A stretch of 40,732 bases of DNA, taken from assembly GCA_021158195.1 (NCBI GenBank), contig JAGGVA010000023.1:1-40732 (forward strand). The letters run 5' to 3'. The notes under the pieces are model-generated. The model worked only from the letters and a program-made list of their open reading frames with translations, was not told the origin of the DNA and did no database searches. Below, piece after piece: positions 12,231 through 20,579 of this stretch (position 1 is its first letter; every line of letters starts with the position of its first letter). Source of the stretch: a bacterium. GTDB lineage: Bacteria; Patescibacteriota; Minisyncoccia; Minisyncoccales; PEYH01. The translations under genes and the position numbers were made by a program.

Positions 12231-12239
12231 TACACATAA

Positions 12240-12270
12240 GGGCTCCCCTTTGGGGAGCCCTAACTTTTTA
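12240..12270 (+). terminator. Rho-independent terminator of the zinc-ribbon ORF
   Basis: gggctcccc-ttt-ggggagccc (12240-12260), then taacttttta. Confidence 0.65.
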
Positions 12271-12297: not shown

Positions 12298-12325
12298 TTG
12301 ACAAAAATTTTAATTTGAGTAAAAT
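12298..12325 (+). promoter_or_regulatory. Sigma-70-type promoter (TTGACA-16-TAAAAT)
   Basis: TTGACA at 12298-12303, TAAAAT at 12320-12325. Confidence 0.5.
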
Positions 12326-12496: not shown

Positions 12497-13072
12497 ATGA
12501 GCAAATATAAATATTATTTTAGAAAACCCAAATCAGCGATTACAAAAGACATTTTAAATTTCCTTTTTATTGCGGGAGCAGTTTATGTGGCGGCATCGTC
12601 TCCCTATTTTGTTGTGAATCTTTGGAAAAATTACAGGAAATTTAAGAGATATCCTCAGAGAAAGTTTAGTGACTCTTTTCAAAATCTTCGAAGGCAAGGT
12701 TTAATAAAAATAGAAAAGAAAAATCATCAAATTTATATTTCTCTGACAGAAAAAGGGAAGGCAAAAGCAGGGTGGATGCAAATAGACGCCCTTAAAATCA
12801 AAAGACCTAAAAGATGGGATAGAAAATGGCGAATTGTTATTTTTGATATTGCCCAGCTGAAGAAAATATATCGGGAAGCCCTAAGAGGAAAACTGAAGGA
12901 GTTAGGGTTCATTCCTCTTCAGAAAAGTGTTTGGATTTATCCCTTTGATTGCAGAGACGAAATTAACCTTTTGAAAAACTTCTTTGGGCTAAGCGACAAA
13001 GAATTGAGATTAATAATTGCCCAAGAAATAGGAGATAACAAACCCTTTTTAAAACACTTTAATCTTAAATAG
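12497..13072 (+). CDS. PaaX-like (wHTH plus Cas2/VapD-fold middle domain) putative regulator with N-terminal TM helix
   Basis: RWDRKWRIVIFDIAQLKKIYREALRGKLKELGFIPLQKSVWIYPFDC matches the PaaX-family W.G.W..v.f.iPe..R..R..L...GF..l..gvWi.P signature. wHTH-like FQNLRRQGLIKIEKKNHQIYISLTEKGK. Hydrophobic ILNFLFIAGAVYVAASSPYFVV. Confidence 0.6.
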   Translation: MSKYKYYFRKPKSAITKDILNFLFIAGAVYVAASSPYFVVNLWKNYRKFKRYPQRKFSDSFQNLRRQGLIKIEKKNHQIYISLTEKGKAKAGWMQIDALKIKRPKRWDRKWRIVIFDIAQLKKIYREALRGKLKELGFIPLQKSVWIYPFDCRDEINLLKNFFGLSDKELRLIIAQEIGDNKPFLKHFNLK

Positions 13073-13241: not shown

Positions 13242-16200
13242 ATGGATCAAATATTTCCTCCTAAAAAAAGAATCATTGATACCTCCCCCAAGAAGTTAGT
13301 TAAGATTATAGGAATCATTTTAATTGTTTGCCTTTTACTTGGTTTTGGTTATTACTTCTTTCAACAGAGGCAGAAGAGTCAAATTATCGAAGGGCGATTT
13401 GAGATTGTTCCTACTCTTTCAGACGATGCAGGCATTGATCCAGAAACTTCTTTTATTCTTTTAAGTTCGGAAGATATAGCAATAAAAAGGCTAAAGAGAA
13501 TGATCAAGTTTCAACCCTCAATAGATTTTGAGATTAGAAAAGTAAGCAAGGCAGCAAAAGGAGATTTTTTAAATCAAGTTTTGGCTGCCGGAAGCAAAGA
13601 AGATTCAAAAGTTTTTAAATTTGAGATCAAGCCCAAAAAACCATTGGAGATAAACACAATATACAAAATAGTTCTTAGTAAAGATTATGTAGAAAGGGAG
13701 TACAGTTGGGCCTATCAAGTTAAAGCTCCGTTTCAGGTTATTGCTACCCATCCGGGTGATAAAAAAACAAATGTTCCGTTAAATTCAGGAATAGAAATTA
13801 CTTTAAATAGAGAGGGTTTTGTAGATATAGAGAAATATTTCTCTATTTTGCCAAAAACAGAAGGAATAATTAAATCGGTAGGAAATAAAATAATTTTTAT
13901 CCCCCAAAAACTTTTACCAGAGACAGTTTATACAGTGACTCTTAAAAAAGGGCTAAAGGTTAAGGGCAGCAAAGATACTCTAAACAAGGATTACACTTTT
14001 CAATTTGAAACAGGAAAAGAATACTATTCGTCACAATTTCCCTATTTAAGTTTTAATAATGATTTTTTGATTTTTCCCTCACAGACATTTCCAAGGATTA
14101 CCGTTTATTGTAATGAAATAAATTCTCAAGAAATTGAAGCAGAAGTATATAAATTTTCTAGTCCAGAAGAATTTTTAGAGTCATATCAAAATAGCAGAGA
14201 TTGGTCTTTAGGGTGGACTTATTATTATCGTCGGAAAGGAGCCTTTTATAATCCAAAAGAGGAAGAAAAGATATTTACCTTTAAACCTTTTACGGGAAAA
14301 GGGTGTGATTATTCTGCTACCATAATTATTCCAAAAAAATTGGAAAAAGGATATTATCTTTTAAATTTGCCCATTAAGTCCGACTACGGAGAAGAAAGAA
14401 AGTATCAGATATGGTTTCAGATAACGAAACCAATTGTTCATTATTCAGCCGTTACTAAAGATAATGGAATTTTTTGGCTTGCTGATTTGTCAAAAAAAGA
14501 TTTTGTAAATGGAGCCACGATTACTTATATATGTGAAGGAAAAAATTTTACTCTTGGTGTTACTAACCCGCAGGGTTTTTTTCAATTTAATGTTCCCGAA
14601 CCTTGTCGAACCCAGAAAGATAAATTTTCATCAAATTTTTTCAAGATAGAAACAAAAACCTCACTGCCTCTTTTTGTGAAAGAAGAAGATAGAGGGTCTT
14701 ATTTTCCGCATTATTATTGGCAGTCCGATTCTGAGAAGAGTAAATATTGGGGCTATATTTCATCAGACCGCCATGTTTATCGCACAAACGATGTTTTGAA
14801 ATATTGGGGAGTTGTTAAAGAAAAAAACAGCGACATAAGAAATTTTAAGGTATCGGTGGGAATTTATAAGGACTGGTGGTATTCAAGAGGTGAAGCATTA
14901 ACATCGCAAGAAGTGATTGTTTCTTCTCTTAATACCATTCGGGGCGAATTGAAGATTAAGGGAATTCAACCGGGGTATTATACATTGGCTGTTGTTGCAA
15001 ACGATGAATTAGTTGATAGTGTTCCAATTCAAATCCTAAATTACACAAAGCCCACATATCAGATAGAAGTTAATGCTTCTAAAAAAGCGGTAGTCGTTGA
15101 CGAGGTTGTTAATTTTAAAGTTAAGGCGTCATTTTTTGATGGAACCCCAGTTTCTAATTTAAGGGTCAAATATCAAGTATATAATGAGGGACATTCTGAT
15201 ACAGGTTATTTAACTCTGAATGAGTTTGGAGAGGGAGTTTTTTCATACAAATTTTCTAGAAAGAGCGAATATTCGTGGGGTTGTTATTCTTTTGCTGAAA
15301 TTACTGTTTCTCCGGCTGGATCAGAAGAGGGTGAAATTTATGGTGAGGAATCGGTCTTAGTTTTTCCCTCAACTATTTATTTGCAGGCCTTTAAAGAAAA
15401 ATTAAGTAGAGGAGTTTATAAGTTAACGGCGAAAGCAAACAAGATAAATTTTGAAGGTGTTAAGGGAGAGGATTTGGGTTTTGTTTACGAAGAATACTTG
15501 GGCGAGCCGTCAGTTAATACTCTTATAAAAGCGAATATAAATAAAATAACTTACAAAAAAGTAGAGATAGGAACATACTATGATTATATTACTAAAACCT
15601 TTCGCAAAAGATACAGATTAGAGAGGGAAGAAGAACTAGTAGATTCTATACAAGGAGAAACAGATCAAAAAGGAGAATGGTCTTTCAATTTTGATACAAG
15701 TCTCTTTCCGCTGAATGAAGAAAGTTTTTACAGAATAGATTTTATAGTTTATGACAGCAAAGGAAGATATTCTAAAGAGTCAATTTATATTTGGTCTACT
15801 TACTATGATGAATTAGAGATAATAGAAGACAAACCAAGAGGGTCTCTTACTATTAACAATGAACCGTTTAGAAAGGAGTTTGGTCAAGGAGAAGACATTG
15901 TTTTAAAGCTTAAAATTTCTGGAGAGGGAGAACCTTCCAATTCTTATATTTTGTTTTACCGCTATCAAAAGAACATTACTAAAGCAGAGATTGTTCCTTC
16001 TTTAAGTTATCAAGAAAAGTTTGCCGAGGCGTTTATTCCTACAATGGCTTATAGGGCTGTTTTCTTAAGCGCCTATGGGTTTGTAGATAGCAATGAAGTA
16101 ATAGCCTCTTTTGATGAAGAAACTCGCAGGCTATCAATAAGATTAGATAAGGATAAGGAGAATTATAGGCCGGGAGAGAATGTCGATCTAAATATTGAAG

Positions 16201-18686
16201 TTAAAGACAAAAATCAAAAAGGCGTTCCCTCCGAGGTTAATGTTTCAGTAGTAGATGAAGCATTATTTCACCTACCTTTGTCTTCATATGGACTTGAAAG
16301 AGATATTTTAAAAGTGCTTTATGAAGATTTTTGGATTTCTCCTATAATCTCGTATACTTCTTACGATTCTTTTAGAGGAGGAGCAGAGATGGGAGCATGT
16401 TTCTTAAGGGGTTCCAAGGTCTTAATGGCAGACGGCACATTAAAAAATATTGAAAAAATAAAGCCAGGAGACGAGATATTAACTTGGGCAAATGGAAAGA
16501 CAAAAAGATGGGTAAAGGCAGTAGTACAGAGCGTTTCCAACCACTGGGCTAGAGAATATATAATTATTAACGATTTTCTAAAAGTAACTCCCGAGCATAA
16601 AATTTTTGTTAACGGAAGGTGGACTTATGCTGGAGATGTTAAAGTAGGAGATAAACTCTTGGGGAAGAATGGAGAAACAATTATTGTAAAGACGGTTACA
16701 AAAAAGATAGAAGATGCGCCGATGTATAACATATATGTGAGCAAATATCACACTTATTTTGTAGACGGTATTTATGTTCACAATGAAGAAAAAGGAGGTC
16801 AGGTAAGAATGAATTTTGTAGATGTGGCTTTTTATAATACTTTAAAAACCGATCAACGGGGCAAAGTTTATACTTCTTTCAAACTTCCCGATAATATTAC
16901 TTCCTGGAGAATAATTGCTCAAGCGTTTTCTCCTCAAAAATTAATGGCTGGAAGAGAAGTATCGTCGATTAATGTATCTCTTCCATTTTTTGTTGAGGCA
17001 ACAATAAATGATAGTTATTTGGTAGGAGATGTTCCGATAATAAGAATAAGGGCTTTTGGCACAGAGTTAGACCAAAATAAAGAAGTGGAGTTTAAAATAG
17101 AAAGCAAAACCCTCAACTTGAATAAAAAAATTACTGCTCCTCATAATTTCGTCTATGTCTCACTTGGACCTCTTTCAGAAGGAGAGCATCAAATTTTAAT
17201 TTCTGCCAAGCAGGGAAAATATAGCGATACAATTATAAGAAAGTTTAAAGTGGAGAAATCATATTTTAAGGTGGACAAATCTAGTTTTTACAAAGTTTCA
17301 GAAGGTCTCTCTGGCATAAAGGGCAACCAATATGGATTTACTAAACTTAAATTTATAGATTTAGGCAGGGGAAGATTTTTCTCTTCTTTACTGAACAAAA
17401 CCCACAATCAAGGAATAAGAATAGATCAAGTGTTAGGAAAGTATTTGGCACAGAAATATCTTTTTAAATACTACAACGAAGGGAAAGGCAAAGTAGAGCT
17501 TCCTAGTATAGATAATTATTACGGAGAAAACGGCGGGCTTCAACTTTTTCCATATGGCGACGAAGACCTCGAAATAACAAGCAAGGTGGTAAATCTTGTG
17601 CCAGATACAATTTACAAAGAGCAGGTGGTAGGATATCTTTATAACTCGTTAGATGACGAAAAAGCGGATATTCATAGAATTTCAAAAGCCCTTTATGGCC
17701 TTTCCGCTTTAAATGAATTGGTTTTGAATAAGATTCAAAAGATTATAAAAGACCCCCATCTTAGTTTAGAAGACAAAACATATTTGGCTCTCGGGCTGGT
17801 TAATTTTGGCGACAAAGAAACAGCAAGAAAGATTTATTATAGCGACATTAGGAATAATCTTCGGTTTCAGGGACCGGAAGCCTGGGTAGAAGAAAGAGAT
17901 TTGACAAAGAGGGTAAAATTGACAGGAATGATTGCAGTTCTTGCGGCGCAATTAGAAGAGCAGGACGCGGACAAATTAGGGGAGTATATATTAACCCATA
18001 ATCCGGAGAGAGATTTAGATATTTTAGAAGAACTTCTTTATATTAAGTCAGAGTTGCCGAAAATTTCGGCTGAAAAAGCAGAGTTTGAATATTATACCAA
18101 TAATCGCTCAGGGAAGGTTTTGTTAGAAAAAGGCAAAACTTATGAACTGAACTTATCTTATGAAGAATTAAAAACTTTGAGATTTAAAAATGTAAAGGGC
18201 GACATTGCTCTTATAAGTTTTTATCAAGAGGCTCAAGATCCCCAAAACATTAAAAAAGATCAAGAACTTGGAATTAAGAGAGAATATTTAGTTAATGGGA
18301 TACAGAAAAACACCTTTAATGAAGGAGATTTAGTTTTGGTGCGACTACATCCCTATATTTCAGACAGAGCTTTAGATGGCAACTATCAAATTGTTGATTA
18401 TCTACCAAGTGGATTGAGGCCGGTTAGTCAAATTTACAATAGAGGTCGATATCTCGGAAAATGCGATATTTTGTATTATCCGACAATGATGGAGGGAAAC
18501 ACTGTTTACTTCAAGGTTTGGAAAGGGTTTAGGTCAGATCTAATTTTTTGTAAAAACAAGACAGTTAATTATTATGCAAGGGTTGTTTCAAAGGGTAAAT
18601 TTAAGGCTAATCCGGCTGTAATTCAATCATTGAAGGATTTGGAAAGCCTTAATGTCTCTTCAGAGGATTGGATAGAGATTAAATAA
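13242..18686 (+). CDS. Membrane-anchored alpha-2-macroglobulin-family giant surface protein (no thioester motif, YfaS-like), interrupted by a Hint domain
   Basis: N-terminal TM anchor (LVKIIGIILIVCLLLGFGYYFF). SbsA-Ig-like VIATHPGDKKTNVPLNSGIEITLN. VSVVDEALFHL (bait-region-domain-like). VRMNFVDVAFYN..TDQRGKVYTSFKLPDNITSWRIIAQAF (A2M domain signature). C-terminal IVDYLPSGLRPV (receptor-domain/MG8-like). None of the 9 Cys residues is followed by xEQ. Confidence 0.8.
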   Translation: MDQIFPPKKRIIDTSPKKLVKIIGIILIVCLLLGFGYYFFQQRQKSQIIEGRFEIVPTLSDDAGIDPETSFILLSSEDIAIKRLKRMIKFQPSIDFEIRKVSKAAKGDFLNQVLAAGSKEDSKVFKFEIKPKKPLEINTIYKIVLSKDYVEREYSWAYQVKAPFQVIATHPGDKKTNVPLNSGIEITLNREGFVDIEKYFSILPKTEGIIKSVGNKIIFIPQKLLPETVYTVTLKKGLKVKGSKDTLNKDYTFQFETGKEYYSSQFPYLSFNNDFLIFPSQTFPRITVYCNEINSQEIEAEVYKFSSPEEFLESYQNSRDWSLGWTYYYRRKGAFYNPKEEEKIFTFKPFTGKGCDYSATIIIPKKLEKGYYLLNLPIKSDYGEERKYQIWFQITKPIVHYSAVTKDNGIFWLADLSKKDFVNGATITYICEGKNFTLGVTNPQGFFQFNVPEPCRTQKDKFSSNFFKIETKTSLPLFVKEEDRGSYFPHYYWQSDSEKSKYWGYISSDRHVYRTNDVLKYWGVVKEKNSDIRNFKVSVGIYKDWWYSRGEALTSQEVIVSSLNTIRGELKIKGIQPGYYTLAVVANDELVDSVPIQILNYTKPTYQIEVNASKKAVVVDEVVNFKVKASFFDGTPVSNLRVKYQVYNEGHSDTGYLTLNEFGEGVFSYKFSRKSEYSWGCYSFAEITVSPAGSEEGEIYGEESVLVFPSTIYLQAFKEKLSRGVYKLTAKANKINFEGVKGEDLGFVYEEYLGEPSVNTLIKANINKITYKKVEIGTYYDYITKTFRKRYRLEREEELVDSIQGETDQKGEWSFNFDTSLFPLNEESFYRIDFIVYDSKGRYSKESIYIWSTYYDELEIIEDKPRGSLTINNEPFRKEFGQGEDIVLKLKISGEGEPSNSYILFYRYQKNITKAEIVPSLSYQEKFAEAFIPTMAYRAVFLSAYGFVDSNEVIASFDEETRRLSIRLDKDKENYRPGENVDLNIEVKDKNQKGVPSEVNVSVVDEALFHLPLSSYGLERDILKVLYEDFWISPIISYTSYDSFRGGAEMGACFLRGSKVLMADGTLKNIEKIKPGDEILTWANGKTKRWVKAVVQSVSNHWAREYIIINDFLKVTPEHKIFVNGRWTYAGDVKVGDKLLGKNGETIIVKTVTKKIEDAPMYNIYVSKYHTYFVDGIYVHNEEKGGQVRMNFVDVAFYNTLKTDQRGKVYTSFKLPDNITSWRIIAQAFSPQKLMAGREVSSINVSLPFFVEATINDSYLVGDVPIIRIRAFGTELDQNKEVEFKIESKTLNLNKKITAPHNFVYVSLGPLSEGEHQILISAKQGKYSDTIIRKFKVEKSYFKVDKSSFYKVSEGLSGIKGNQYGFTKLKFIDLGRGRFFSSLLNKTHNQGIRIDQVLGKYLAQKYLFKYYNEGKGKVELPSIDNYYGENGGLQLFPYGDEDLEITSKVVNLVPDTIYKEQVVGYLYNSLDDEKADIHRISKALYGLSALNELVLNKIQKIIKDPHLSLEDKTYLALGLVNFGDKETARKIYYSDIRNNLRFQGPEAWVEERDLTKRVKLTGMIAVLAAQLEEQDADKLGEYILTHNPERDLDILEELLYIKSELPKISAEKAEFEYYTNNRSGKVLLEKGKTYELNLSYEELKTLRFKNVKGDIALISFYQEAQDPQNIKKDQELGIKREYLVNGIQKNTFNEGDLVLVRLHPYISDRALDGNYQIVDYLPSGLRPVSQIYNRGRYLGKCDILYYPTMMEGNTVYFKVWKGFRSDLIFCKNKTVNYYARVVSKGKFKANPAVIQSLKDLESLNVSSEDWIEIK
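16398..16784 (+). other. Hint / mini-intein-like domain (129 aa, residues 1053-1181 of the A2M-like protein) without an endonuclease
   Basis: Cys1 plus block A CFLRGSKVLMADGTLKNI, block B VTPEHKIF (TxxH), blocks F/G MYNIYVSKYHTYFVDGIYVHN. The next residue is Glu (gaa, 16785-16787). Confidence 0.8.
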
Positions 18687-18693
18687 AGAATTG

Positions 18694-20457
18694 ATGCCAA
18701 AAACTTATAAAATAATTCTCGTTATTATTATTTTGAGCATCTTTGGGTTAGTTGTTTTTTCGGTTTATGATTATTTAGATTTCTCTTTCACAAAAAGTTA
18801 TTTTTTGGATGGCCACAATAAAAAGTTTATTAGGACAAAGTTTGAAGAAATGGGAGATTATATTGAGGAATTAGCAGAGGAAAGGGAGGGAAATTTCCTA
18901 AATTCTTCGCAAGAAGATTATATTCAGGCGGGTATAGTTTCTCATCATCTTCCCACAGCAGCCCCTCTTATAACAGATTTTTATCTTCGTTTAAAATATT
19001 CTCAGGGACCCAGAGAGATTTTTTTTGTTATAGGTCCTGATCATTTTGAGAGAGGGAAAGCCGTTGTTTCTACGGCTAATTTACCGTTTTTAACACCATT
19101 TGGAAAACTTGATATAGATGAGGCAGTGATTAATGATTTATTGAAGGTAGGAGTTGCAATAGATAATGAAGCAATTCAAGATCATTCTATTGGGGTGCAG
19201 GCAATTTTTATAAAAAAATTTTTTCCTAAGGCGCGAATTGTTCCTCTTATTCTTAAGGCGAATACAAACGATGAAATTATAAAAAAGATCGCAGAAGTTA
19301 TTGCGCGTTATAGAGATAGAGCCACAGTAGTCATTAGCGTAGATTTTTCTCATTATCAACCATATGATTACGCGGAGATACTAGATGGAATAAGCGAAGA
19401 GATGATAAAAGATCTTAATTTTAATAATTTTACCCTTAGGTATGTGGATTCGCCGGCATCAATGAAACTGCTGGGATTAGTTGTTAATGATTTTGATTTA
19501 GGCCTTAGAAACATTATTAGAAGTAATTCTTACAAGTTTACGGGAGATTCTCAGAATACAACAGGTTATATTATTGCTACTTTTGGCAAAAGCAACAGCG
19601 AAGAATCATTACTTATGTTTGTGGGAGATATTATGCTTTCCCGAAGTGTAGGCTTAAAAATGAAAAGAGAAAACAATTGGAAATGGCCCTTTCTTAAAAT
19701 TGCTGATTATCTAAAACGGGCAGATATTCTTTTTGGTAATTTAGAAAACCCTATTTCTATCAGAGGAAAAAATATTGGGAGTATTTATTCTTTTCGGGCA
19801 GATCCACGGGTGGTTGAAGGTTTAAAATATGCTGGTTTTGATGTGCTCTCCTTGGCAAATAATCATATAACTGATTGGAGTATGGAGGCGATGAAAGATA
19901 CTTTTCAAATTTTGAAGGACAATGATATTAGTTATATAGGCGCAGGATACAACAGGGCAGAAGTTCATACTCCGGTAGTTAAGGTATTGAAAGATGGAAC
20001 AAAGATAGGTTTTTTAGGTTATACAAATTTAATTTCAAAATATTGGGAAGCCCAGGAAGACAGGCCAGGAGTTGCTTATCTGAGAATATCTGACATCAAA
20101 AAAGATATCGCGGAAGCAAAAAAGACAGTAGATTTGTTGGTAGTTTCTATGCATTTTGGAACAGAATATAAACCACATTCAAACGAAACCCAACAAGAAT
20201 TTGCAAGAGCAGCGATTGATGCCGGGGCAGATATTGTGGTGGGTCATCATCCTCATGTGCTTCAAGAAATAGAGAAGTACAAAGATGGTTATATTGTCTA
20301 TAGTTTGGGTAATTTTGTTTTTGATCAATTATTCTCAGACGATGTTAGGACAGGTGGAATATTGGAGGTTATTGTTAAAAATAAAAAAATCAAAAAAATA
20401 GAACTAAAGAAAACTTGGATTACCGAGAATTTTCAGGTTGAATTGATGGAGAAATGA
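18694..20457 (+). CDS. Membrane-anchored fusion protein: MEMO1/AmmeMemoRadiSam-B-like domain plus CapA (PGA_cap) metallophosphoesterase-like domain
   Basis: TM ILVIIILSIFGLVVFSVY. MEMO-like GIVSHHLPTAAPLI, VIGPDHFERG, DHSIGVQAIFIKKFFP, VISVDFSHY. CapA-like FVGDIMLSR, GNLENPIS, SLANNHITDW, VVSMHFGTEY, VVGHHPHVLQEIE, YSLGNFVFDQ. The ORF track start is a TTG at 18691; the ATG is at 18694. Confidence 0.75.
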   Translation: MPKTYKIILVIIILSIFGLVVFSVYDYLDFSFTKSYFLDGHNKKFIRTKFEEMGDYIEELAEEREGNFLNSSQEDYIQAGIVSHHLPTAAPLITDFYLRLKYSQGPREIFFVIGPDHFERGKAVVSTANLPFLTPFGKLDIDEAVINDLLKVGVAIDNEAIQDHSIGVQAIFIKKFFPKARIVPLILKANTNDEIIKKIAEVIARYRDRATVVISVDFSHYQPYDYAEILDGISEEMIKDLNFNNFTLRYVDSPASMKLLGLVVNDFDLGLRNIIRSNSYKFTGDSQNTTGYIIATFGKSNSEESLLMFVGDIMLSRSVGLKMKRENNWKWPFLKIADYLKRADILFGNLENPISIRGKNIGSIYSFRADPRVVEGLKYAGFDVLSLANNHITDWSMEAMKDTFQILKDNDISYIGAGYNRAEVHTPVVKVLKDGTKIGFLGYTNLISKYWEAQEDRPGVAYLRISDIKKDIAEAKKTVDLLVVSMHFGTEYKPHSNETQQEFARAAIDAGADIVVGHHPHVLQEIEKYKDGYIVYSLGNFVFDQLFSDDVRTGGILEVIVKNKKIKKIELKKTWITENFQVELMEK

Positions 20458-20483: not shown

Positions 20484-20523
20484 TCCGCTGTAATAACATT
20501 GCCATGGCAATGTTATTACAGCG
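20484..20523. repeat. 40-nt palindromic repeat, copy 3 (perfect palindrome)
   Basis: CCGCTGTAATAACATTGCCATGGCAATGTTATTACAGCGG, followed by tttggttttt. Confidence 0.9.
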
Positions 20524-20579
20524 GTTTGGTTTTTCCTCTATGAATTTTTCTAAAGAGCGGGAGATATGTATCCAATATG

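Follow-up and report, generated by a model that had tools for sequence, protein, structure and literature searches.

Why would a macroglobulin that has lost its thioester carry a domain of the self-processing Hint fold in its bait loop, and what would such a domain do there? This question is raised by a single gene of a Patescibacteria genome (assembly GCA_021158195.1, contig JAGGVA010000023.1, positions 1 to 40,732), which encodes a protein related to alpha-2-macroglobulin (A2M). The whole stretch of 40,732 nt is referred to as the window; nucleotide coordinates refer to the window and amino acid (aa) numbers to the 1814-aa open reading frame (ORF). Many Patescibacteria lineages share the combination of a Hint domain with an A2M, a trait conserved throughout this part of the protein family. 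The ORF and the domain in question are the following:

13242..18686, plus strand: host ORF, 1814 aa, predicted membrane-anchored A2M-like protein without thioester (translation, Pfam, AlphaFold, Foldseek).
16398..16784, plus strand: Hint domain of the type-A bacterial intein-like (BIL) or pretoxin HINT (PT-HINT) kind, aa 1053-1181, 129 aa (Pfam, phmmer, AlphaFold, Foldseek).

Identity of the Hint domain

The codon of Cys1053 occupies nt 16398-16400 and the codon of Asn1181 ends at nt 16784, in exact agreement with the borders given in an earlier note on this DNA. The domain contains the strings CFLRGSKVLMADGT, VTPEHKIF and YHTYFVDGIYVHN and is followed by EEKGG. Its key residues are Cys1053-Phe, Thr1116..His1119, His1170-Thr1171 and His1180-Asn1181; the Cys at position 1, the Thr-x-x-His within VTPEHKIF and the terminal His-Asn that the note had listed can all be read in the translation. 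The residue directly behind the domain (+1) is Glu1182, non-nucleophilic as stated there, and the length of 129 aa indeed leaves no room for a homing endonuclease.

The Pfam family PT-HINT (PF07591), whose cut-off is 27.7 bits, scores 63.1 bits in the whole ORF and 68 bits when the domain is searched on its own, and the families Hom_end_hint and Vint likewise exceed their Pfam cut-offs on this segment. NCBIfam gives weak matches of the ORF to the N- and C-terminal intein blocks. The best sequence match in the PDB is the C. thermocellum BIL domain 2lwy, which aligns end-to-end (phmmer; E-value 2.6e-9 with the whole ORF, 6.6e-11 with the Hint domain and 10-residue flanks as query). The single-ORF phmmer search against the PDB gave Hint matches only, and the A2M structures mentioned below were reached with a family profile.

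In an AlphaFold model of the Hint segment and its flanks, the block means of the predicted local distance difference test (pLDDT) range from 81 to 97 across the domain. The top Foldseek match of this model is the Tetrahymena BIL2 domain 6y75 (E-value 5e-12). On 2lwy it superposes with a template modeling (TM) score of 0.84, a root mean square deviation of 1.9 Å and 31% identity. The Foldseek probability is 1.0 for BIL domains, inteins, Vint and Hedgehog, with mini-inteins, Vint and Hedgehog ranking after the BILs.

Type-A BIL domains are defined by intein-like blocks, including a C-terminal His-Asn, without a nucleophilic C'-flanking residue (PMC4031507). The domain studied here has the Hint fold, the N-terminal Cys nucleophile, the block-B Thr-x-x-His and the type-A BIL blocks including His-Asn, and established BIL domains are its closest relatives in both sequence and structure. 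Because BILs are the best matches and nearly all relatives have a non-nucleophilic residue at +1, sequence comparison and modeling support its assignment to the type-A BIL kind rather than to the canonical inteins, as the note had proposed.

A canonical class-1 intein was rejected, since a +1 nucleophile is absent from nearly all of the ~225 junctions compared below, an endonuclease is lacking, the site is a loop and descent is vertical. A toxin-releasing PT-HINT was rejected as well: there is no toxin domain 3' of the Hint domain, and the next 633 aa comprise the A2M domain, a domain similar to the thioester domain (TED) of A2Ms, and the bMG10 domain.

The host is a macroglobulin without thioester

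The remainder of the ORF displays the architecture of an A2M, with the following features:

13296..13361, plus strand: N-terminal hydrophobic segment, aa 19-40, LVKIIGIILIVCLLLGFGYYFF, a putative signal anchor (read from the translation).
15873..16274, plus strand: A2M_BRD match (PF07703, 34.8 bits, cut-off 22.7), aa 878-1011, ending with VSVVDEALF.
16830..17051, plus strand: A2M match (PF00207, 38.2 bits), aa 1197-1270, preceded by R-x-x-F-x-D and containing LPDNITSWR.
17412..17429, plus strand: degenerate thioester site G-I-R-I-D-Q, aa 1391-1396, within the helical TED-like domain (family alignment).

Pfam also detects Big_5 at aa 162-257 and bMG10 at aa 1687-1796. The profile searches that the earlier note had suggested for the Hint and A2M families thus found both, with the borders 878-1011 and 1197-1270 on either side of PT-HINT. 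The database copy of the host (P0001) is 1612 aa long and is called from a later start (compared over window 13242-13850); with 1814 aa, the protein contains the hydrophobic anchor at its N-terminus and fits the length of the homologues (~1780-1870 aa).

A profile built from 66 family members reaches ECAM/YfhM with an E-value of ~1e-42 and also finds SaA2M, TEP1, CD109, human A2M, C5 and C3. In the AlphaFold model of aa 615-1814 (window 15084-18683; mean pLDDT 87.6, predicted TM score 0.72), aa 1376-1607 form a helical TED-like domain; the rest includes beta-sandwich macroglobulin (MG) domains, one of them at the C-terminus. ECAM 5a42 is its best Foldseek match (E-value 9e-46), followed by 4rtd, SaA2M 4u48 and 4ziq (E-values in the range of 9e-46 to 1e-42), and eukaryotic A2Ms, C4, CD109, C5 and TEP1 rank lower. 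The hallmarks of the A2M/TEP/complement fold, specifically the MG ring, the bait-region domain (BRD), the helical TED and the C-terminal MG domain, were all found. As a side observation, the TM scores of the model are higher with protease- or methylamine-activated structures (4ziq 0.39, 4rtd 0.38, 9fx3 0.42) than with native ones (5a42 0.25, 4u48 0.20), a likeness to the activated state that may mean nothing, as AlphaFold is an unreliable guide to conformational states and the first 614 aa are not part of the model.

None of the nine Cys residues of the 1814-aa ORF belongs to a CxEQ thioester motif, which bears out the earlier count, and the family alignment extends this absence to the whole family. 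The thioester column reads G-x-R-x-D-Q family-wide, with and without Hint domain, Arg standing for Cys and Asp for Glu. A YfaS-like relative has PY-DSVEQT (S-V-E-Q) in this column, and ECAM has YPYGCLEQT (C-L-E-Q). In this A2M-fold host, Arg stands in place of the Cys that would form the thioester.

The Hint domain is located in the bait loop

The Hint domain is bordered by two short segments:

16347..16397, plus strand: disordered N-side linker, aa 1036-1052, pLDDT <50, ending in the motif GAE-x-GG (here GAEMGA, 16380-16397).
16785..16802, plus strand: disordered C-side linker EEKGGQ, aa 1182-1187, pLDDT <50, with Glu1182 at +1 and Lys1184.

Only aa 854-862, 1036-1052 and 1181-1187 have a pLDDT below 50 in the large model, in which the Hint domain is a folded bead between two disordered linkers. 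The Gly or Ala at position -1 (Ala1052 in this protein) is the predicted acyl donor.

The GAE-x-GG motif is conserved in Hint-bearing and Hint-less homologues and is aligned to ECAM 943-951. In the profile alignment, the family motif 'gAek.GG.G' pairs with ECAM chain residues 904-912 (AALRFGGDG); the chain-to-protein offset of +39 was fixed by R956, G958 and N963, and Leu942 also fits (PMC4498604). The insertion point thus corresponds to ECAM ~948-950, between R923-L942 and R956/G958/N963. The former is the disordered bait stretch cleaved by elastase, while the latter residues dock on the C-terminal MG domain after cleavage (PMC4498604). Profile matches to human A2M begin at profile position 1014, just past the insertion point, at chain residue 728. 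Region IV of the human BRD spans Glu729-Arg732, and the segment connecting the BRD to MG6 needs to be cleaved for compaction (PMC9181621).

The ECAM alignment and the start of the human A2M matches support the placement of the Hint domain within the bait region, the position that the note had read from the flanking motifs. The A2M_BRD and A2M matches lie on its two sides, and the comparison with homologues that lack the insert shows that the insertion always falls at one point. We further observed that the flanks EEKGG (16785-16799) and GAEMGA look as if the loop GAEKGG found in Hint-less relatives had been partly duplicated. At the DNA level, a short direct repeat around the Hint domain was looked for by eye and not found, the codons of GAEMGA and EEKGGQ being dissimilar.

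Distribution, conservation and descent

The Hint domain is present in 51 of 92 aligned homologues, always at the same insertion point. Hint-bearing proteins share the junction pattern ...G-A-E-x-G-G / C-F...H-N / (E/D/A/Q)-(E)-K-G-G...R..F.D, and the loop of Hint-less proteins follows the pattern GGAEKGG-GD-xPR. A scan with a profile of the Hint domain and its flanks confirmed at least 533 relatives, counting one genome per GTDB species; one of the two scan patterns was A2M-only, so not all of these need have a Hint domain. Most of the best 80 of these loci match the Hint domain and both A2M flanks, and the others match from just before the Hint domain onward. The intact junction occurs in ~78 of these 80 species-representative loci, which answers positively the survey of related genomes that the earlier note had called for.

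By record title, the lineages include Portnoy-, Specht-, Doudna-, Kerfeld-, Nomura-, Magasanik-, Falkow-, Uhr-, Morani-, Gracili-, Peregrini-, Dojka- and Levyi-bacteria, Parcubacteria and others. Several loci (L012, L013, L023, L029 and others, mostly binchicken metagenome-assembled genomes) are titled 'uncultured Gammaproteobacteria', 'Pseudomonadales' or 'Nanoarchaeia', titles that may be placeholders or reflect mis-binning. The same may hold for the title 'Saccharibacteria' of the closest relative's record. In a set of 1.84 billion cluster representatives, 937 reach an E-value of 1e-30 or below, and 112 of the 140 new 50%-identity representatives among the top 150 show the Hint domain followed by PDNxTxW. 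The recurrence of the same junction in ~78 of the 80 best loci, and again in the 112 new representatives, led us to reject a one-off insertion or an assembly artefact.

The catalytic residues do not vary. In Hint numbering, Cys1, Phe2, Thr64-x-x-His67, His118-Thr119 (block F) and His128-Asn129 are invariant in all 51 Hint-bearing homologues, as are Asp25, Gly84-Asp85 and Asn111, and the invariance of the catalytic residues reaches down to 28% host identity. The residues around the domain are nearly as constant in 113 distinct junctions:

Position -2: Gly in 100.
Position -1: Gly in 109, Ala in 4.
Position +1: Glu in 48, Asp in 36, Ala in 14, Gln in 10, Ser in 3, Asn in 2.
Position +2 or +3: Lys in 113 of 113.

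In the 112 further representatives, the +1 residue is Ser in four and Thr in two and otherwise non-nucleophilic, and Lys is found at +2 or +3 in 109.

Pairwise comparison of 50 Hint-bearing proteins (the 51 minus P0001, the duplicate of the window's protein) gives a mean identity of 46% for the Hint domain versus 36% for the remainder of the host, and Hint identity tracks host identity (Pearson r 0.755). Relative to the closest relative (L004), the ratio of nonsynonymous to synonymous substitution rates is 0.27 for the Hint domain and 0.13-0.15 for its flanks, indicating purifying selection on both. In a neighbor-joining (NJ) tree computed without the Hint columns, Hint-less proteins are basal and several other Hint-less lineages are nested among the Hint-bearing ones. 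Gain/loss parsimony, a crude estimate in which some saturated distances were undefined, yields 4-10 changes on all 100 bootstrap NJ trees. There is thus more than one gain or loss event. A single old gain, followed by mainly vertical inheritance and several losses, is the most economical history.

The nearest Hint domain outside A2Ms among the search matches is the PT-HINT of an RHS-type protein, with 41% identity and Lys at +1. The Hint profile also drew proteins with 2-13 tandem Hint stretches (P0098, P0100, P0102 and P0180); P0098 combines five PT-HINT stretches with a Tim44-like domain, and P0180 combines two with a PKD domain.

Canonical inteins occupy conserved, critical host sites and are distributed sporadically by horizontal transfer. 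Here the linkers are predicted to be disordered (pLDDT <50) and the Hint domain follows its host (r 0.755). A disordered loop should tolerate deletion, yet the chemistry is intact and the domain is conserved above the host. This pattern is unlike that of a selfish intein and argues for a host function.

A proposed self-processing bait

We consider the domain to be, with a probability of roughly 0.45, a domesticated type-A BIL that became fixed in the bait loop of a membrane-anchored, thioester-less A2M and whose main outcome is self-excision with a nick in the bait, by analogy with characterized BIL domains. After export and folding, Cys1053 would attack the carbonyl of Ala1052 (Gly in most relatives), and the N-S acyl shift would convert the peptide bond into a backbone thioester. 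Cyclization of Asn1181 would cut the C-terminal junction. With no Cys, Ser or Thr next to it, the canonical branched intermediate should be impossible. The dominant outcome would then be excision of the 14.8-kDa Hint domain and a nicked bait loop, leaving a membrane-anchored N-terminal chain of 122 kDa and a C-terminal chain of 73 kDa (computed masses). Both chains would be held together by the MG domain to which the two sides of the loop contribute, analogous to MG6 of A2M and C3. The new N-terminus, EEKGGQVR..., would be located just upstream of the stretch aligned with the compaction-trigger segment of human A2M. In this way the protein would itself make the cut that a classical A2M receives from an attacking protease, and processing would represent a maturation or trigger step built into the molecule, one that may depend on environmental conditions.

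The invariant catalytic residues, the junctions, the loop context, the bait position and the conservation that follows the host all support this self-cleaving bait. It is established knowledge that type-A BILs form an N-terminal thioester and cleave C-terminally by Asn cyclization without a branched intermediate. A precedent among A2Ms is also available: the thioester-less MagD is cut in vivo to a 100-kDa form only when MagB is present (PMC5764988). That the domain processes its host, with the nick as main product, is what we infer from these parallels.

Several points weigh against a simple nick. Processing of every family member is extrapolated from the chemistry of Hint domains, and the association of the chains after the nick rests on analogy. 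The alignment of the Hint loop to ECAM passes through Gly-rich, low-complexity sequence. Homologues without Hint domain have retained a similar GAEKGG loop and seem to function in the absence of self-cleavage. Finally, Lys at +2/+3 and Gly-Gly at -2/-1 are unneeded for simple cleavage and fit ligation or conjugation better. Because the GG/C junction and the invariant Lys are unexplained by cleavage alone, two readings in which the thioester is captured by a nucleophile stay under consideration.

The first of these is self-excision followed by religation, which we regard as unlikely, though as a serious candidate. The thioester at residue 1052 would be resolved within the molecule, either by the alpha-amine of Glu1182 (the splicing route of type-A BILs) or by the epsilon-amine of Lys1184, and the Hint domain would be a transient device for folding, export or timing. 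The Lys1184 route would result in a continuous, isopeptide-bridged bait loop, as formed by Tetrahymena BIL2 between ubiquitin-like domains, and the religated mature protein would resemble the Hint-less homologues: the product GAExGG-EEKGG is close to their GGAEKGGGD loop. The junction statistics (Lys at +2/+3 in 113/113 and 109/112, Gly at -1 in 109/113 and at -2 in 100/113) point in this direction. So does the top structural match, BIL2 of BUBL1, which forms an isopeptide between the epsilon-amine of a Lys and a C-terminus (PMC8616854), and splicing by aminolysis is possible for type-A BILs (PMC4031507). However, the type-A BILs examined to date yield mainly cleavage products, and the Lys may be a leftover of an ancestral AEKGG loop. 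Self-removal alone would also bring no obvious benefit, which fits poorly with conservation above the host.

In a more far-reaching reading, which we deem improbable, the domain would be an ATP-independent conjugation engine on the surface of bacteria of the candidate phyla radiation (CPR): the Gly-Gly end of the membrane-anchored N-terminal half would become a backbone thioester, captured either by the Lys at +2/+3, which would staple the bait loop by an isopeptide like that of ciliate BUBL proteins, or by an amine of a host cell or protease target. If the captor were an amine of a target, covalent capture would have shifted from the TED to the bait loop, and the backbone thioester would replace the lost side-chain thioester.

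This intermolecular variant, in which an outside nucleophile takes up the thioester and the membrane-anchored N-terminal half becomes covalently linked to the target, appears quite improbable to us. Hypothetical acceptors would be amines, whether on peptidoglycan, on a protease or on a surface protein of the host cell, or else a lipid as in the Hedgehog reaction. In favor of this variant, Arg replaces the thioester Cys family-wide while a predicted thioester-generating domain is exposed in a loop, and there are models elsewhere: BIL2 attaches the domain preceding it to other proteins in an ATP-independent reaction (PMC8616854), and the Hedgehog Hint domain moves its N-terminal domain onto cholesterol by the N-S shift alone (PMC7664689). 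CPR bacteria moreover live attached to hosts (PMC8080830). Yet family members without Hint domain also lack the thioester, so that the Hint domain is not a necessary replacement, and the invariant His-Asn implies selection for C-terminal cleavage too, for which a Hedgehog-type transfer has no need.

The conservation data disfavor the two remaining readings. It is very unlikely that the domain is just a mini-intein-like passenger, selfish or neutral, which a permissive loop tolerates and which is passed on by vertical descent without benefit to the host. The fold and the splicing-type residues are indeed intact, the nested lineages without Hint suggest repeated loss (4-10 changes), and the nearest relative outside A2Ms, with 41% identity, belongs to an RHS-type protein. 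But neither a homing endonuclease nor a +1 nucleophile for efficient splicing is present, the GG and K-G-G flanks are conserved too, and the domain is kept above host level across deep CPR divergences in a disordered loop from which its deletion should be cost-free. Hint-fold domains without processing activity exist and this one is well folded in the model, but a catalytically dead fold that serves as a structural or binding module on the bait loop is extremely unlikely with all residues for the N-S shift and Asn cyclization invariant in 51 of 51 proteins and the -1 Gly kept, residues that dead domains normally lose.

Gene neighborhood

The surroundings of the A2M gene comprise the following features:

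12239-12261: strong terminator-like hairpin (consensus scan).
12298-12325: promoter-like site, near-consensus with 11/12 (consensus scan).
12497-13072: small PaaX-like ORF, after the promoter-like site.
18691..20457, plus strand: membrane-anchored fusion of Memo-like and PGA_cap domains (Pfam Memo 80 bits, PGA_cap 253 bits; hydrophobic N-terminus).
20485..20524, plus strand: terminator-like hairpin with an 18-bp stem (consensus scan only).

The Memo/PGA_cap gene starts 4 nt after the stop codon of the A2M gene. The PaaX-like ORF, the A2M gene and the Memo/PGA_cap gene form a putative transcription unit of three genes, bracketed by the hairpins; the PaaX-like ORF is found elsewhere only in the closest relative (L004). 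The remaining genes of the window, which has a GC content of 34.5%, are concerned with envelope and secretion (GT4, Bac_transf, Wzy_C, MurB, SecA, SecD).

Of 83 loci, 57 have a Memo-like gene close to the A2M gene; it is downstream of the Hint domain in 56, a count that includes the Hint-less L003, and upstream in one (L082). The downstream copies start ~2.5-2.7 kb from the Hint domain, at the expected stop of the A2M gene; examples are located at 13389-15152 in L001 and at 12823-13707 in L003. PGA_cap was found in 17 of the 83 loci. No transglycosylase or penicillin-binding protein (PBP) gene adjoins the A2M ORF in the window, and no mag-like gene set was found among the window's neighbors or in the three other loci whose gene tables were read. 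Membership in type I or type II of the bacterial A2Ms was ruled out by the loss of the thioester and the gene context. Next to the PBP1c and mag operon types, the pairing with Memo-like genes seems to represent a third kind of bacterial A2M system, one that has yet to be described.

Novelty and significance

A full-text literature search in an incomplete library returned no work that links a macroglobulin with a Hint domain, intein or BIL or that describes this architecture in Patescibacteria/CPR, and to this extent the earlier note's remark that a Hint domain at the A2M bait position had gone undescribed holds. A 2026 review on A2Ms does not mention inteins or Hint domains, and the Vampirococcus CPR genome paper names A2M-domain membrane proteins only as putative defence (PMC8080830). 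Automatic Pfam annotations of the Hint-A2M architecture are already present in databases. Because of these annotations and the incomplete literature coverage, we rate the system as known kinds in a new combination and not as categorically new.

In the A2M-family proteins studied so far, the cut in the bait awaits a foreign protease and covalent capture originates from a buried Cys-Gln thioester. Here a large, uncultured radiation has kept the scaffold, lost the thioester and acquired a predicted thioester-forming, self-cutting domain in its bait. Should the domain prove active, the protein would be the first macroglobulin to trigger or conjugate itself, and the domain the first BIL with a fixed, family-wide structural role, as opposed to a place in variable toxins and adhesins. 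Patescibacteria have few large conserved surface proteins, and how they attach to their hosts is poorly understood; this family offers a simple, testable way to learn what one of these proteins does. For protein engineering, it might supply a small ligation or cleavage module that is extracellular by nature. The architecture is widespread and surprising for both the A2M and the intein fields, while activity and role are what we infer.

Comparison with known systems

The domain resembles type-A BILs such as C. thermocellum BIL4 (2LWY) in its size class (~130-140 aa), the absence of an endonuclease, the Cys1, TxxH and His-Asn residues, the non-nucleophilic +1 residue and the extracytoplasmic location. 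Known BILs are scattered over hypervariable secreted proteins, whereas the present family keeps one site in one protein family across many Patescibacteria lineages and has conserved GG and K-G-G flanks.

PT-HINT domains (PF07591) are the best Pfam match, and the RHS-type PT-HINT (41% identical) has a non-nucleophilic +1 residue too (Lys). According to the Pfam family description, PT-HINT is positioned directly upstream of a C-terminal toxin module, which it releases. In the present protein, by contrast, the MG/CUB/TED/MG10 half of the A2M fold lies downstream, with no toxin. BIL2 of Tetrahymena thermophila BUBL1 (6Y75/6TMM) is the top structural match, and Gly-Gly before Cys1 and a downstream Lys are found here as well; BIL2 ligates via the epsilon-amine of a Lys and can conjugate to other proteins (PMC8616854). 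It belongs, however, to a eukaryotic polyubiquitin-like locus, is flanked by ubiquitin-like domains and shares only 23% sequence identity, and Lys would be the acceptor here by analogy only. Class-1 mini-inteins share the fold and blocks A, B, F and G, but differ from the domain in having a +1 Cys, Ser or Thr, whereas the domain is vertically inherited at a disordered-loop site and is conserved above its host.

On the side of the macroglobulins, the host is similar to type II A2Ms (MagD/YfaS) in having the A2M fold and a bait region and in lacking CxEQ; MagD is associated with the inner membrane and is sometimes cleaved endogenously (PMC5764988). The YfaS-annotated proteins P0095 and P0096 are distant homologues of the host. 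Unlike type II, however, the host has a predicted transmembrane anchor and a Big_5 N-terminus, Arg at the former Cys position, a Hint domain in the bait loop and a Memo-like partner (with or without PGA_cap) instead of the six-gene mag operon. Type I A2Ms (ECAM/YfhM, SaA2M) are the closest solved structures and have the same order of MG domains, BRD, TED and C-terminal MG domain. They differ from the host in being Gram-negative lipoproteins with a thioester that are paired with PBP1c and whose bait is cut by an external protease (PMC4498604, PMC5764988).

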